Of a DNA stretch of 64,000 nt, positions 2,121-61,592 are shown in pieces. Source of the stretch: a virus (Duplodnaviria; Caudoviricetes); IMG/VR virus record IMGVR_UViG_3300013901_000005, positions 64,001-128,000 of that record, one strand, 5' to 3'. Below the pieces are notes generated by a model. It was not told where the DNA came from. It ran no database searches and was given only the letters and a program-made list of their open reading frames with translations. A program made the translations under genes and the position numbers. Within the stretch, counting starts at the first letter, position 1; every line of letters starts with the position of its first letter.

Positions 2121-5100
2121 ATGGACGAGAAAAAATATGACTTGTTTACAAATATGGCATATAATTAGAATTTTTCATATGATGATCTTATATCAGCTGG
2201 ATTAAATTCTAATAACACAGAGTTGAAAGATAAAGATACTTATAAGAATAGTGAAAAGGTCTAGGAGATGTTTAAGAATGATAGCGGCTAGTTCGATGAA
2301 TAGAAATTTAACAATTTCTACAATACAGCCTTGTCATTTTATAATCAAATGGCAACTTCTGATTATGAGACCTCCGTTGCAAAATCTGCAATATACCATA
2401 GGGATAATATATTTGCACCGGCAGAATAGCGACAACAAGGGCCGTAGTTTTAGATGTATTAGACAATAAATCCATGGCATACAACAGAAGGTCTTACGGA
2501 GTTAGGAAAAATAAATGAATCACCATTATCTCTTTCTGAATTAGCCCAGAATTATAAAGTTTTATTAAACCCCGTTGAGGCAGAGAATAATCCTTCAAAA
2601 GCAAAATGGGGAGATGCTCCAAATGATAATTTTATGGGTTATTTCTTTGACACACTTGTCCTTGCTACTTATGATAAAGATACTATTGAAACTGATCCAA
2701 TAACAGGTGAATAGAAAAAACATTTTAAAGGAGAGCCAAAGACAAGCCCAGAAGGTGAGTTCTATTACGAAAGATTGGATGGACGGGATCCATATGGGAA
2801 ATAGGTTTTAAATAAAATGAATATTCTCACAAAAGATGGATCAGCTTGGAATAGATTCGATATATTCGATTCTGATGATAAAGACAATGGATGGGTTAAA
2901 ACAATTTTAAAGAATACGGCTCTTGTTGGAGCCATGTTTCTTCCGTATGTTGGTGGATTCTTTAGAGGGGTAAGTGTGCTTACGCAGTCTGTAGGTTTAT
3001 TAGGTACTTTAGGAAAAATCGCTGTTGGTAGTGATAGTGATTTATTTAACAATATGGAAGGATGGTCGATGTCAGTTAATAGACAGACCGCTCGTTCAGA
3101 ATATGCACAGCAGAATGTTTGGTGCGTAGAAAATATGATAAATCTTATAGGTGATGCTGTAGCTTAGCTTGCTGAATAGAGATGGATATTTGAAAAAGGA
3201 TCTTCACTTATCTCTGGAGCAGATATCATAACAGAAGCTGGATAGGCTAAAAAACAAAAACAATTATTAGACTAGATATTAAAAAACAATCAAATAAAAA
3301 TAGATGCTATTCTGAAAGACCCAAAAAATATTGGAAAAGCCATGGAGGCATCTGCAATATTAACAAAACACGCTGAACTAGAGGCTGCCAATCAATTAAA
3401 AAACTTGGTTAAAAGTTCATAGAATATTTCTAGTATTATTAGTAAAGCATACATGACTGGTATTACGGTAAAAGATATGTATGGTGAAGCCAAGGCAGCT
3501 GGAGCATCCGATACTGATGCTGCTCTTTTAACTATAGGGTATGCAGCCGCTGAGTACGCACTTTTAAGTACAGGTCTTGGTGAATTGGTATTGCCAGAAC
3601 TACGAGCTGGCCGATATAGAATTGAAGCAATTAACAAAGCTCTTTTCCAAAAGAAAAACGAAGCTCTTAAATCAATAACAAATTAGTTTGGAAATACAAC
3701 AACAGAATAGGCTAAAAGAGCATATGTATCAAAAATGATACAATTTGGAAAAGACATTGTTTCTGGAGTAAAAGTTACTGGAGCAAAAACTGCAAATGCT
3801 ACTTTTGCTGCTGCTTTAGGAGAGGCTACAGAAGAAACTTCTGAAGAAGTATTAGCTGATTTTATGAGAAGTTGCCACAATATATCATAGTGGCTTTAGG
3901 GTAAAGACGATTATATGAAAGCGTTTGGATATGATACGACCACTGGGAAATTTGATATGGATGATATATCTTCGAGATATGGAATGTCATTTATAGGAGG
4001 TTTTATAGGAGGTGGTGTAGCAAATGCAGGAATGAATTACAAAGCAATACACTAGGCAATCTCGTATACTCCAGAAACCGCAATGAGAGAACTGGTTAAT
4101 ATGACCAGAAATAATGAACTTGATGAATATAAGAAATACACAAATAAATAGATATTAGGAAATCCGAATTTATCAGCAACAAATTATGATGTTATTGATG
4201 GAAAAATAATTTGGCAATAGGGAACGAAATCGGATAATCAAAATATTGCTGCACACAAAGCACTGGATAAACAACTTGAAATTATTTAGAGTATTTTAAC
4301 AGCAAATGGTGCAAAATCAGATAATGAGTTTTTGGATACAAATACTCTTGGTGATTTTCGTTTTATGGCACTGCACGATTCAACAACAGCTGGAGCATAT
4401 CTTGATCATTATAATAAATTAAATGTTGATTTAGTAAAATCAATGTCAGAATTAGAAACCTTAATAAATACAAAGGCTGATATAAATAATGATGGAGTCG
4501 TAGAGGATAAAGAAAAACGAAATGCATAGAAAGACAAATAGGATGATACACCATCAACTGAAAGAATAAATCAACAAATTGAATAGAAGAAAAAGCAAAT
4601 AGAAGACATTAAAAAAGAATTACAGGATTTACAAGAAGGTAAATATGCATATAAATTTATCGCACAGTCATTATTTGAAATGACTACAGCGTTAAGCAGT
4701 AATTTTACCTCACCAATATATGCAATATATGCCGAAAGAAAATATCACAAAAAATATGATGATTTAAGTGATGAAGAAAAGTAGAAAGCTCTTGACGAAT
4801 GGAAGAATTTCTCAAATCTTGATGGATCAATACGTTTTCAGACTCTTACTGATATGTATCTTGATATTGCAAAAAAGGCAAGTGATGTCATAAAACAACA
4901 CAGTGAGAAGTATCTTTCCGAAGATAAAAATTTTGGAAAATTTGATGCATATTTATCTAGGATTTTTAATTTTAACGCAAAATCTGAAGAAGATTGGATA
5001 GAGAATCTTTCAAAAGCACTTGCAGATCCAAATGAAGTCAATCAACTTGGAATGGCATTACATAATGTCTTCCTTAATGATGAATTGTTTAATCTTTTAA

Positions 5101-54732: not shown

Positions 54733-56552
54733 TTAATGTTTCAATGATGGGTATATACGATCCCAATGTGAAATAAATGATCCATCTTCCTGCCTTTCGG
54801 CTACTATGATATCTTTATTTGCTAAATGTGCCGGTCTTGCTCCGGCTGAGGCAATGCCTCCAGTCTCAAAATTAATACAAAGGTTGCTATTTTCGTCTCT
54901 ATGAACAAAACCTATGGCATCAGATTTTGCCGCAAAGACTCTTGCGCTTTTACCTGTGAGGTCGAAATCCTTAACGGAGCCGACTTCCTTACCTTCTGCA
55001 GAAATGATTGACTTGTCTTTTACATGACCTACAATAATTACATTATTAGTTACAGATTTAATTTTATCAATAACTGATTCCATTGCCGCTCTGATATACG
55101 TGAATCCGATTCCCATTGGTGCTTGGGTTATATCGCCATTATAATTAGCTCCGGCAGGAGTATCACGATATAATTTCAATGCCAGTGGCTTTACAAATTC
55201 CTCCAAAGCAGTCACAGTATCAATTGTGATAAACTTATATTTGTGTTCAGACTCTTTCAGAGCCTTATAAACCTCAGCAAAATCCTTCAGGCTATTAATT
55301 TCAACTTTTAAAGCCGATACGTACTTACTACCAGATTCAAACATTTATATTCCAAATGATTCGCAACATCATTTGCGCTTTCGCTGCTATATATTACTAT
55401 ATAGATTAGACTATATCTTATTCCTTTTTTAGGAATCCCGCCGTTTCCACCATCATTTGCTTATGGCGTACTCTACTCACTTCTATTGTTATTCAATAGG
55501 TTTTCGATAGTCGTTGAACCTTTACAATAATTTGATATTTTATAAACGTGATTTACAAAATCGTTTAAAGTATAATCCATTTTCATCCTATTGCACATAG
55601 AACAACAAGGTACACAATTTTCGATAGTATATCCTAAATTGCTATCTATCCTATCAACCCCATTTACGTTAATAGGTTCTTTGACTTTTATATATCTTTT
55701 TAAACTTTGTATTGGTCTTGGTTCAGAACCACAATAAAAACATGGTTTTGATATTATATTATAAAATTCTTCGTCTGATATTTCCCAACTAAAACCTCTA
55801 CTTCTAGCACCTTCTTTATAATAATATTTATATACATTTAAGGGACCAAATTTACTAGGAGTTTTATTATTTCCAATACAATTTATACAATGACATATTT
55901 TTGCATTTAATATATTATCTTTTCGCATTGTTAATATACTATTACAATTTTTGCATTGTACTTGATAATATAATTTGTAATTTACTGCTTTTTTAAAACC
56001 TATAACTTTAAATGCAATATTTTCAAAACCAATAAAATCATTTTGATATTTTATTTGATTGCATTTTGCACATGAATTATAATTTTTAAATGATGTTTTT
56101 GCTATTCTTATTATATGCCCACAATCTTTACAGATTATTACATAATTATACAAGTTAATCTTTTTACTATCTTTATATTTTTCTCTTATTAATTCTATGA
56201 CATCATATTTATTATTACTTAAATTAATATTTCTGTCAATTTGTAAAATTGATCCTATATGATTGGAATGTTCATATCCTTCTACCTTTTGTTTTTGTTC
56301 TTCAGTTAATTTATCAAATATCATACTTGGTATATGGTTGTCCAAATTTGTATTAAAATGGAGTTTCCACTATTAAACGGGTTTTCACTATAACATTACT
56401 GTTATATGCGACTTTAATTAATCGAGAATCAGGTTGTCATCAAGTGTTGATAATACGGTAGTCTTGCCTATCTTTGGTACTCCGTAGATAATTAAGTTCT
56501 GAGGATCTTGTGTTGCTGCTGGTAATTTTGTTGTAGGTAATTTAATAGCCAT
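54733..56552 (-). CDS. AAA (Sak4-like) ATPase, spliced (exons 56552-56421 and 55341-54733; 246 aa)
   Basis: IYGVPKIGKTT; splicing restores LILD|FESGS; ITIDT, IIVGHVK. Confidence 0.85.
55342..56420 (-). mobile_element. Group I intron (IA-like) in the AAA ATPase gene
   Basis: P1 CGAU/GUCG; core GGTTCAACGACTA and AAGATATAGTCT; terminal G. Confidence 0.88.
55461..56345 (-). CDS. Intron-encoded HNH homing endonuclease
   Basis: PCFYCG...NGVDRIDSNLGY..NCVPCC..CN.MK. Ends at TAG 55473, or TAA 55461 under code 15. Confidence 0.82.
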
Positions 56553-58575
56553 TATAATACAAATTTAGAAGAATTATTATTTTTTATCTCTCTGTTCTCT
56601 GTATTATCTTCACTATCTAGAATCCACATTGGATTCTTGTATTTTTCATAATTAGTTATACATTCTGGTCTTGGTATTTCGGCAAAATAATTGATCCAGC
56701 CATAAAATGCACATCCAACTTCTATATCACAGTCTCCAAACCTATTTTTTAACACCTGGATACTTCTGAAGTTTCCTCCTAATCTTTCAATATCATATTG
56801 CTTATATGTTTTCAGTCCATCTCTAAATGGATTATAAACTGCAATCATAATATTGCTGTCATTTACCGTATTCCCTGTGTCTTTTGCATCATTAATACTG
56901 AATGAGCTACGCCCCTGTTTGAGGCGTTCAATGTTTCCCTGTTCCCTATTGGCTTGTTGGATAACAATTGGACTTATTTTACATTTTTCCCTAAAAAAGA
57001 CCATATATTTTGAAAACAGATCAATTTCCTGCTTTAGTGTATGGCCTTGCGTAGGATTTAACAAACCAACATGATCCACGATAACATTATATATTAGATT
57101 TGGATTATTCGGTGTATAAGTCAGTCTTGTCTCGGTTTCTGCAAAAGTACCCATTTTAGATAATCTGTCTTTTAATATTGCATATATTGTATTCGCATTG
57201 ACATTCTTATCATAAATCTCTACTTTATTTGAAATCTTCTCAATCCATGGCATACATTTCATAACCAGTTCATAATCATCATCAGAAAGAACATACTCTC
57301 TCTCACGAGAAAGTATTTTCTTAAATGATAACTGTCTGCCGAAATTCTCAAAAATATAAATGGACAATAATTTTACAAAAAGGGACATACGATTCATTTC
57401 CAGTGAAAAATATAGGACTTTAAAGTCATCATTGTCTATTGTTGCCATTAAAGGCCTGTATAAATAGGCATATAATGCATAACTGGTCTTCAGTTTTGTT
57501 ATCATACAGTTTTTTATCTGTATTTCTTATTCTTTTATTTGAATAAGCTCCGCATATCTTTTCATCCTAAAAAAAAGGATGATAACCACTCGTGGGAATA
57601 TTTTATTCCTATCCAATATTAATTTTAATATTAAATTCTCCTTTTTCTAATATTTGCCTACGGATTTTTAAATCTCCTTTCCAGAAAATTTGTGGATTAA
57701 TTTTAAATTCACCCATTTCTCCTGTTATTAAACCTTTCTGTTTTAATAAACGCAAACTATTTGCAACCATATTTTTACCTAGGTCAAATTCTTTTTCAAT
57801 TCGTTTCCTATCAGCTGGTGTTAGTTTTACTATTCCTGTATTAAATTCTGCGTGTTCGCACATCCAAATTAGTAATTGTTGCGCCCTTACTGAGTTTAAT
57901 TCATAAAACGGTGCGATAAATTTAGTAAATACCATATAAAAAGAATCTTCATTTACTGCAGTTTTAAAAACTTTCGAAGTCTCAATTGACTTCAATTCTC
58001 CCGTTTCCGCATCAATAAATTGGTGCTCAATTGATTGTACTATTTTTTTCATATTATATAATTTTTAATTATATTAAATATAATTAAAAAAATTATAAAA
58101 TCAAACAATTGAATCGTTTATTATTATAATTTTAAAAATTATATTTATCCCTCTATAAATTAGATTATGCCCTATTTAGCGGGAATTATTCCCTCTTTAG
58201 AGGGATTAGATATTTTCGGAATTAATTGAAAATCAATAAATAACATCATTTTTTTTGGTATTTTCTTCTTATCTAATTGGTAGGTTTCAATTCCTATGCT
58301 GTACAGTGTTATAAATCTTTTAAAATTTATAATTACCTCGGGATTGTCATCTCAGATTTTCCCGATTTTGGTTATTAATAATTTATAATATTACTATTAT
58401 AAACGGCAAATTCTTGTTATTTACCTGCGCCTGAATTTGAAATAATTAATGTGTATGTCTCACGACATACTCCATCAATTATACTTTCAAGTTTAGGCAG
58501 TCCCATACTTAATCCTTGATTGCTTCCTGCTCTTCCTTTTTGTACTTCCGTTATGATCTCATCTTTTACTGTCAT
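56552..58575 (-). CDS. dnaB: DnaB-like (SF4) replicative helicase, spliced (exons 58575-58423 and 57490-56552; 363 aa)
   Basis: Splicing restores Walker A SNSGAG|KTS; FSLEM, IVDH, QQANR, LKNRFG. Confidence 0.88.
57603..58052 (-). CDS. RepL-family winged-helix replication/maintenance protein
   Basis: IDAETGE, helix-turn-helix-like core, FKINPQIFWKG; no nuclease motif seen. Ends TAG 57609, or TAA 57603 under code 15. Confidence 0.7.
58075..58105 (-). promoter_or_regulatory. Bacteroidota-type promoter overlapping a hairpin upstream of the RepL-like gene
   Basis: TTTG-N19-TATATTTA; inverted repeat 58057-58097. Confidence 0.5.
58143..58205. repeat. Three degenerate 21-bp direct repeats (iteron-like)
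   Basis: atttatCCCTctataaattag / attatgCCCTatttagcggga / attattCCCTctttagaggga; CCC starts at 58149, 58170, 58191. Confidence 0.65.
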
Positions 58576-59219: not shown

Positions 59220-61592
59220 TCAGAATCTGAATTGTATTTTCTGTACCGGTTTATCGTATGCCCTAGGATCATTTCCATTTAGAACATCCCGTAAACCTCC
59301 CTCATCTATTTTTATTACATTTTCAGTGACCTGTGAGTTTGCAGCCCACTTTTCCTCTACAGTATTTCTGATAACCAAAACAAATATCTCTGCCTGTTTA
59401 TCACCTTCCTTTCTTATCGCCCTTCCTATTCTCTGGGTTCTGCGAATCTTGCTTGAATCAATACCAAGCATTATCGCTACTCCCAAACCTGGTATATCGA
59501 GTCCCTCATCGGCTTTACGAATTGTACTCAAAACATTGAATTTTCCATTTCTAAAATCATCCATTATCTGTTTTCCGTGTTTTCCAGTATCTCTACCAGA
59601 ATATACAGAACCAATGCCGATTTTCTCCGCCATTTTGATATTATTACTGAAAGTGATAATTTTCTTTCCACCTCTAGCTTTTATAATATCCCTGGCGATT
59701 TCGATTTTCTTTGGATGATTATTAATAAAAGTCTTTCTTTCCTGAATCGTTTTCATAAAAGCCATTGCATAAGAAGTGATATCCTTAAATTTCTCATATA
59801 CCTTCTTTTTCCTTAATTCTGGATTTTTCTCCAGAACCATTTTTTCTGCAAGATTTCTGCGAAATTTATATCCATTCTTACCTAGACACTTCATTGCCAG
59901 ATTGAAATCAAAATTGAAAAAACTGAAAAAATGAACAAACCTTTTATTCATCTCCCTGTATTTCTCAATATCAGGAACATCAATCATTACCTGATATTCC
60001 TTATATGGACTTACCCAACCATTGATTAAAGCCTCTGTAAGCGTAATTCTATCAATAACTGGACAATGCTCCATCACAATACTTTCAAGGCCGTCAAGAC
60101 GCTCTAAAGTAGCTGTAAGACACATTACATATTTATATTGTATTGTATCAAACGTAGCTCTGAAAGTAGAACTTGGAACTCTTTGTACTTCGTCTATAAT
60201 TAATATATCGCATTTATAATTATGCTTAATTACTGTATTAATTACAAGAACATTACAGTTGAGACCATATCCGAGTTTATCAAGTATTTCTGTCCACTGA
60301 TCTTTCAATACAGTCGTAGGAACGACTATAATAAATTTAGAAGTTGGATATTTGTTTAGTATTTTCCCAATCATATTTGTTGCTATACGGGTTTTCAGTT
60401 GTGTTATCGTTCAACTTTTTATTTGAACTTCTTACTATCACTAGTAAGCTCCGCATATATTTTTACCCACTTATTTCAGTTGGGGTATCGGACACTCGTG
60501 GAAATATTATATTCTGATATAGTCAGTTTCAATTTCTATGCTGTACAATATTATATAATATTATTTATATAATTATCTCGGTATTATCTGATAAAAGATT
60601 TTTACCGATATTGTCCGATTGTAATAAAATCCATTCCTGGATTAAACGGCTTCCATTTTTAAAAAATGTAAATAATTTAAATTTTCTATTTAAATAAATC
60701 ATACTTTTATCATATAAATAATTAATTAATTTGATTCCATTTTCTTTATTATATTCTAATATCCATGTATTGTTAGAATGTCTCTTGTCATGGCGAAATT
60801 TTCCTTTTATTTTAGAATATTTAATTATTGCATTTAAAAAATTTTTTGTTCCAATAAACTCGCAAGCTGGTGATATTATTTTTATATATTTATGATATGT
60901 TAAACATCCATCTCCGTCAAAATATCCTCTTATAAAATGTCTTATTAAATCTTTTGATTTAAATATTTTAATATCTGGAAATTTTAATGTCAAAGATTTT
61001 CTAGGAGTACAACCATATTCATTTAATACATTCCATAAATGTTTGTTTGTTAAACATATACGACACCTTTTGAATTGCTTATTATTAACTTTGCAATCAC
61101 TAATTTTTAAATTAGTATTTTCGTTTTCTATAAATTTATTAAATTTTATTAAATGTTCATAATCTAAAATTTGTAAAGAGATTTCAAAGGTATATAATGA
61201 TTTTTTGTTATTGTCAAGCGGAGAGTAACTTATATATCCATCTGCAAATATAAATCCTAACCAATATGCTTTTTCTTCTGTATCTATACAATCAAAAATA
61301 TGATTATTAAATTTAACTCTATTATGATTGTTAATAATTTTAACATTTAATTTTTTAAACCATTCTGTTAAAGTATATCTTGAAATTCCCTCTCTTTTCG
61401 CCATTTTAGTTAATGAAATATCAGTATTTATATATTCATATGATAATTTTTTAAAATACTATAATTTATTTTCCATATATTTAATTATTTTTTTTTGAAA
61501 CCCAGCCCCGTAGGTGCAATGACCGTTCCGATACCTTTATTATCAAACCATTTCTGTAGAGCTATATTCTGTCTCTCATCACGAGAAATCAT
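59220..61592 (-). CDS. Superfamily 2 helicase, spliced (exons 61592-61500 and 60395-59220; 422 aa)
   Basis: Splicing restores APTGLG|KTR; IIDEVQ, LTAT, EGLDIP, QRIGRAIR. Confidence 0.88.
60396..61499 (-). mobile_element. Group I intron in the SF2 helicase gene
   Basis: P1 GGUUUC/GAAGCC enclosing the ORF; P7 GCATA/TATGC; ends ACACAACTG. Confidence 0.87.
60565..61476 (-). CDS. Intron-encoded LAGLIDADG homing endonuclease, 303 aa (2 in-frame TAG=Gln)
   Basis: YWLGFIFADG, FIRGYFDGDG. ATG 61476 MENKL(TAG)YFKKLS(TAG)EY is in frame with the track ORF. Confidence 0.85.

Follow-up and report, generated by a model that had tools for sequence, protein, structure and literature searches.

The insert that we describe here, lodged in the P7.1 loop of a mobile group I intron, is best explained as a complete RepL-type basic-replicon cassette that would give its phage an additional replication start or plasmid-like maintenance function. 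We put the probability of this reading at roughly 0.6; origin activity is inferred. The intron interrupts a DnaB-like helicase gene of a virus described as a gut phage, the complete record of which is 155,233 bp long. ‘The window’ refers throughout to the 64,000-nucleotide stretch of this record that was analyzed, and coordinates are window positions unless stated otherwise. The replication genes of the phage lie on the minus strand, as do all of the window features described below. To our knowledge, group I introns nearly always carry a homing endonuclease or a maturase as their cargo.

The helicase gene is interrupted within its P-loop codons, at GGT|AAG. Exon 1 (58423–58575) comprises 51 codons and ends with the P-loop residues ...SNSGAG; exon 2 (56552–57490) starts with KTSYALY and contains a Pfam DnaB_C domain (29.5 bits). 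The 932 nt between them (57491–58422) have the hallmarks of an IA-type group I intron: a P1 helix with a U-G wobble, P, Q, R and S elements, and a terminal G. The 5' splice site follows GGT (58425–58423), the intron is preceded by U, and its last base is the G at 57491. In P1, GGU|AAA pairs with a guide at about 58409–58404, with the U-G wobble at the 5' splice site; across sister introns, changes in this guide are matched by changes in the first bases of the intron. P4 can be read in the sequence from the P- and Q-like elements and P7 from the R- and S-like elements, as can P3, P6, P8, P9 and P9.1. Between P7 and the 3' strand of P3 lies an additional helix, at the site that P7.1 occupies in subgroup IA.

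The Rfam group I model did not match the dnaB intron of the window in either gathering or E-value mode, even at E 10, and in E-value mode it found nothing in two insert-less relatives (L001 and L002, copies of about 340 nt). Such short relatives come from Prevotella phage Lak-A1 and the crAss-like phage cr118_1. Because Rfam finds nothing, the intron was demonstrated by covariation instead. Eight related introns were aligned with their inserts cut out, and pairs were counted. Canonical pairing occurs in 86–100% of the cells of this alignment, and there are 38 compensatory pairs, distributed over P2 (7), P3 (3), P4 (3), P6 (8), P7 (1), P7.1 (3), P8 (3), P9 (5) and P9.1 (5). In IMG/VR, some 50 related dnaB genes run without interruption through SNSGAG|KTSYALY, exactly the predicted junction. 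One of the intron-less genes (L045, 1300–1600), encoding a DnaB that is 90% identical, is a natural empty site for the intron. We regard the architecture of the intron and its junction as established, and the intron as real, on the strength of covariation and of these exact intron-less junctions; splicing itself is predicted, without RNA data. Given P1, the terminal G and the covariation, we read the Rfam miss as a blind spot of the group I model.

A sister intron (60396–61499) interrupts the P-loop of the SF2 helicase gene, likewise between Gly and Lys. It carries a LAGLIDADG gene (60565–61404) in L1, and its P7.1 is capped by a hairpin of only 11 nt. Between it and the dnaB intron there are compensatory changes in the guide sequence, P3, P8 and P9. 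The intron lineage follows GGT in at least five different genes (window 57491–58422; L004, L009, L024, L033 and L041). P1 pairs with only three exon bases, and such low target specificity could account for ectopic spread. At L033, the ATPase gene that hosts a RepL intron has further introns of the same family (1500–1830 and 3200–4600), one of them with a LAGLIDADG gene.

The cassette fills the P7.1 loop of the dnaB intron (57609–58283; 675 nt), its borders as a unit being set by comparison of P7.1-borne copies with a P8-borne copy, and core words of the intron flank it at 58294–58284 and 57608–57594. A stem of nine pairs and one bulge, read by eye, closes it: the 5' arm (58276–58284) pairs with 57608–57617, and the 3' arm overlaps the last codons of the open reading frame. 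Closing stems at the equivalent place differ in other loci. The left edge of the cassette is marked by a conserved box of 24 nt (58257–58280), which is unique in the 155-kb genome and which may resemble the nick sequence of pC194-type replicons. Loci of the family match the box consensus 190–330 nt before the ATG. Of the 15 listed, about 12 match strongly; in L019, L023 and L026 the match is weak. Next to the box is a second conserved block (58218–58245), with a short inverted repeat of the TTGA-N-TCAA type. A stable hairpin in this upstream conserved region was considered and rejected: folding was no better than that of shuffled sequence, with z-scores near 0 in five of six loci.

Three iteron-like repeats of 21 bp follow (58143–58205; units 58205–58185, 58184–58164 and 58163–58143), with an exact 21-bp period. 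A search with exact 7-nt seeds missed these imperfect repeats, and a lag-match test with shuffles was used instead. Units 1 and 2 match at 86% of positions, a level reached by none of 200 shuffles. Both have palindromic cores (58204–58191 and 58183–58170) that occur nowhere else in the 155-kb genome, and unit 3 retains one half-site. Between the repeats and the gene is an A+T-rich tract of 90 nt (58053–58142), 94% A+T as against 70.6% for the window, and within it a promoter-like site of the Bacteroidota type (TTTG, 58105–58102; –7 element, 58082–58075), the function of which is inferred. The spacing of its elements is identical in L033. The –33-like element lies 38 nt downstream of the last repeat, so that repeats and promoter do not overlap. 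The sequence features expected of an iteron-type origin, namely helically phased repeats beside an initiator gene, an adjacent A+T-rich unwinding region and a layout kept among relatives, are all present here; that the initiator binds the repeats and that replication starts there is inferred. In most respects this agrees with the first-pass annotation, which had placed at this very site a dnaB group I intron carrying a RepL-like gene and repeats and no homing endonuclease. Its insert of about 660 nt closed by a stem, its three palindrome-cored repeats (palindromic, in fact, in units 1 and 2 only), its A+T-rich tract, its 147–149 aa RepL-like protein free of nuclease motifs and its sister intron with no more than a tiny hairpin at the equivalent place all hold. 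The promoter-like hairpin that it reported is merely a set of A+T-rich inverted repeats.

The gene itself (57609–58052) encodes a winged-helix protein of the RepL family, 147 aa long if TAG is a stop and 149 aa if TAG is Gln. At 57603–57611 the frame ends TAG, then GAA TAA, and the true C-terminus hinges on whether TAG is recoded in the phage; a relative with 92% identity is recorded as 149 aa only when TAG is read as Gln. Residues 2–136 match Pfam RepL (PF05732) at 29.2 bits (cut-off 20.3), and PHROGs and NCBIfam add nothing for this frame. Homologues fall into 34 clusters, all of about 147–160 aa and all with PF05732. In tblastn searches, 82–91% of the protein length aligns at 21–27% identity with RepL genes of 1.2–5-kb plasmids. 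The same kind of search against GenBank phages gave one weak match, and does not link the window protein to GenBank crAss phages. A caveat is that the Pfam score is modest and that identity to plasmid RepL proteins is only about 25%.

AlphaFold predicts a winged helix, with pLDDT values of 84–93 over residues 41–120 and low confidence in the first 35 residues. Foldseek with VIA-align returned winged-helix DNA binders only (best Z 7.7, rmsd 2.7 Å, 83 residues aligned); a VIA-align list made up of winged helices does not by itself exclude other folds. Profile and structure searches found no domain or fold of the LAGLIDADG, GIY-YIG, HNH, His-Cys, PD-(D/E)xK or EDxHD kind, and no nuclease family was found for the frame in Pfam, PHROGs or NCBIfam. 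We consider the family and the fold of the protein established. Modeled as a homodimer, it scores 0.49 against 0.24 for the best control, with contacts that agree to at least 88% between runs and a partner pLDDT of at least 74. It reaches a mark that 20 of 30 proteins solved as same-chain pairs also attain, as does one of 23 solved as single chains. The model supports, without showing, that RepL dimerizes, which would fit palindromic sites; there are no binding data. That RepL is a classical rolling-circle nickase acting through a covalent tyrosine was considered and is unlikely, as no tyrosine is invariant (Y39 is replaced by F in P0032).

The module is conserved as a whole. Upstream DNA was read for 17 loci of the family (the window and 16 others), intron-borne and free-standing, and in most of them the order is box, second block, two to four tandem repeats of 20–22 bp, promoter and gene. 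The sequences of the repeats are locus-specific and their relative position is constant. They are significant (0/200 shuffles) in nine of 15 phage loci and in two of three plasmids, and weaker in the remaining phage loci. The closest relative of the cassette (L033, 92% amino acid identity) differs from it at 52% of synonymous and 4% of non-synonymous sites (dN/dS 0.05, dS 0.89), and the box and second block, about 90 nt together, are 96% identical. The L033 repeats have drifted, yet their half-sites stay in 21-bp phase. Judged by these substitutions, the gene and the conserved region are both under strong purifying selection, and the gene and the DNA upstream of it are therefore functional. 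At four loci (L014, L019, L022 and L023), runs of G or C (six to nine G, or CCCTCCCCC-like) occur 150–250 nt upstream of the box; the runs that precede free-standing cassettes match no Rfam family. At L015, a match to the type III hammerhead ribozyme (3717–3772, minus strand; 52.1 bits, cut-off 48.5) lies among tRNA genes about 800 nt downstream of a free-standing RepL cassette.

Among plasmids, close counterparts of the cassette belong to the pSN2 family, which has been little studied and whose initiator is RepL (PMC5703833). Three of them, the 1.2–1.8-kb plasmids pCCSH121-2, pSRD191 and pHELV-5 (L028, L029 and L030), have two 22-bp tandem repeats each upstream of repL, beginning about 75–130 bp before its start, and an Aeromonas plasmid (L043) has three palindromic tandem repeats at repL. 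The likeness extends to the protein (PF05732, about 150 aa, winged helix) and to the arrangement of two to three tandem repeats, 21–22 bp long and in many cases palindromic at their core, ahead of the rep promoter. The cassette differs in residing in a phage intron rather than a circle, in being only about 25% identical, and in lacking a G+C-rich single-strand origin. Its conserved box is specific to the phage family, with no more than a loose resemblance in pSRD191. Four real RepL mini-plasmids, all with 21–22-bp repeats, are thus arranged like the insert, which supports the plasmid-replicon layout proposed in the first-pass annotation; that an origin fires here is inferred.

More distant counterparts are the pHW126-like plasmids of Gammaproteobacteria (pHW126, pIGRK and pIGMS31), which likewise have a conserved region and iterons, here of 20 bp, and whose Rep is a wHTH protein distantly related to RepL; they differ in having four iterons, an ssi site and a Rep of about 200 aa. 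The 258-bp minimal origin of pIGMS31 combines four 20-bp iterons with a conserved region and an operator, and the Rep of this plasmid binds the iterons, autoregulates, and nicks and relaxes DNA (bioRxiv 10.1101/2022.12.05.519187). Homology between this group and the window protein is limited to one weak tblastn match, to an unidentified 3.4-kb Klebsiella plasmid (E 0.2). Among phages, Carjivirus communis has two free-standing repL genes, with an origin predicted upstream of one (PMC10983915). Like the cassette, such Crassvirales genes combine a RepL-type gene of a crAss-like phage with a presumed origin; unlike it, they lie between genes, whereas in the window a self-splicing intron carries the entire unit as cargo.

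The cassette occurs in many settings. It is found in the dnaB intron (the window, L009/L010), in the SF2 helicase intron (L003–5, L039/40, and probably L124, where only the helicase exon downstream is present), in an ATPase gene intron almost identical to that of the window (L033), and at the P7.1 site of an intron in yet another gene (L041). Intron and cassette together always follow GGT. At L024, a sister gene occupies the P8 loop of a related intron, and cassettes thus reside in introns of at least four genes, in two different loops. Homology between the P7.1-borne and P8-borne copies begins at the box and ends with the open reading frame, and this delimits a discrete unit of about 0.65–0.7 kb. 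Free-standing copies lie between genes at L006–8, L012–23 and others. In the protein tree, intron-borne copies fall into at least three clades, interleaved with free-standing ones, and the phage family stands apart from three plasmid RepL sequences. The window genome and the complete L024 genome each have only the intron-borne copy. Short contigs that might have been free mini-circles (L124 and L125) were rejected as such: each is a fragment of an assembly that broke off within the A+T-rich tract, and a helicase exon follows downstream. The survey of homologues and the family and structure searches proposed in the first-pass annotation came out in its favor: repeats of 20–22-bp period occur at the same relative position in intron-borne RepL loci, and in free-standing ones too, and the frame is a RepL-family winged helix, neither nuclease nor maturase.

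None of 24 related genomes (149–192 kb; 19 at least 90% complete) has a member of the cassette family, in a search that recovered the family in five of five known carriers, and all related dnaB genes are intron-less. The closest relative (L045) has no copy of the cassette in 130 kb, its record being without the last ~25 kb or so. From these distributions we conclude that the cassette is a mobile unit that spreads among phage genomes. Since its presence is patchy and related dnaB genes have no intron, it is an accessory, recently moving element, not the standard origin of the phage group; and since it is missing from 24 related genomes, the group replicates without it. The idea that the cassette is the essential or universal origin of the group is rejected on the same count. 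GC skew has no inflection at the cassette locus: it follows gene orientation and turns near 90 kb and at the genome ends. The first-pass annotation had left the choice between phage origin and selfish element, and had suggested this inspection of skew. Of its two options, a selfish or accessory element fits better than the phage’s main origin. Elsewhere in the same genome, outside the window (C1:150246–150947, equivalent to L032 1441–2142), is a gene for a 233-aa HTH protein that partially matches the RepL profile and resembles the HTH_36 genes adjoining free-standing RepL cassettes in L006–8 and L015–17. It lies near a turn of the GC skew and is a candidate for the region of the regular initiator.

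How such a cassette might work can be outlined, each step being inferred. Splicing would remove it from the helicase mRNA, which would make the loop a harmless landing site, and RepL would be made from its own promoter. A RepL dimer would then bind the palindromic cores of the repeats and either open the adjacent A+T-rich DNA, or nick near the conserved region as its distant plasmid relatives do. The phage genome would thereby gain either an additional, accessory site at which replication starts or a means of maintenance like that of a plasmid.

A replicon in this position might also do more, and act as an analogue of homing without a nuclease, driving the spread of both itself and its intron. 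RepL would fire or nick the donor origin; through over-replication, or by means of the displaced strand, donor DNA would invade a co-infecting genome that lacks the cassette, via exon homology, and convert the empty allele without cutting it. We think this possible but unlikely. The population signature is that of a homing endonuclease (patchy presence, two loops occupied independently, at least four host genes), and nearly identical copies of intron plus cassette are found in dnaB in the window and in the ATPase gene at L033, but reverse splicing after GGU alone can explain the movement of introns between genes. The introns that bear the cassette have no nuclease gene and the distant plasmid relatives of RepL nick DNA, but RepL has no conserved catalytic tyrosine, and it is the element, not the empty target, that contains its binding sites. 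Neither crosses nor coverage data lie behind this interpretation.

Somewhat less probable again is that RepL is only a self-regulated DNA-binding protein, a transcription or exclusion factor for which the repeats serve as operators, with no role in replication. Its fold does match mostly transcription regulators, and the plasmid relatives autoregulate too; but the repeats stop 38 nt short of the –33-like element and so do not overlap the promoter, and strong constraint also acts on an additional conserved region that lies over 50 nt beyond them on the upstream side. Moreover, the layout as a whole equals an experimentally defined minimal origin, which again points away from regulation alone. 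Finally, that the frame encodes a homing endonuclease, whether degenerate or of a novel kind, or else a maturase that helps the intron to splice, is suggested by its peripheral-loop position with a promoter of its own, typical of homing endonuclease genes, and by the LAGLIDADG gene of the sister intron, but is very improbable given the absence of any nuclease family (Pfam, PHROGs, NCBIfam) or nuclease fold, the presence of the gene and its upstream module outside introns in many phages, and a dN/dS of 0.05, which excludes decay.

The replicon cassette that we favor nevertheless behaves in several respects like the homing endonuclease genes of the I-TevI type, and like the LAGLIDADG gene of the sister intron: its gene stands alone in a peripheral loop and has a promoter of its own, its distribution is patchy, and it has invaded different loops and intergenic sites independently. 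It differs from them in having no nuclease domain, and in bringing its own cis-acting repeats. Published work already describes RepL genes of crAss-like phages and the density of introns in the Zeta and Delta groups of these phages (PMC10983915, PMC7886860, PMC10136315). Our literature search found no published account of a RepL cassette inside an intron, and this location is new.

As recurrent intron cargo, a conserved and selected replicon of plasmid type represents a new kind of passenger, and it connects small replicons with self-splicing introns, both of them classes of selfish DNA. This opens the question of whether the initiation of replication can take the place of DNA cutting as a mechanism of drive; if it can, nuclease-free drive by an initiator and its origin would be a new route by which selfish introns spread. 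The self-contained unit of 0.68 kb is also a candidate minimal replicon for the genetics of Bacteroidota. Standard annotation will miss introns of the dnaB-intron family, the Rfam model being blind even to insert-less copies, and origins or accessory replicons of large crAss-like phages may lie hidden in introns that current RNA models do not detect.
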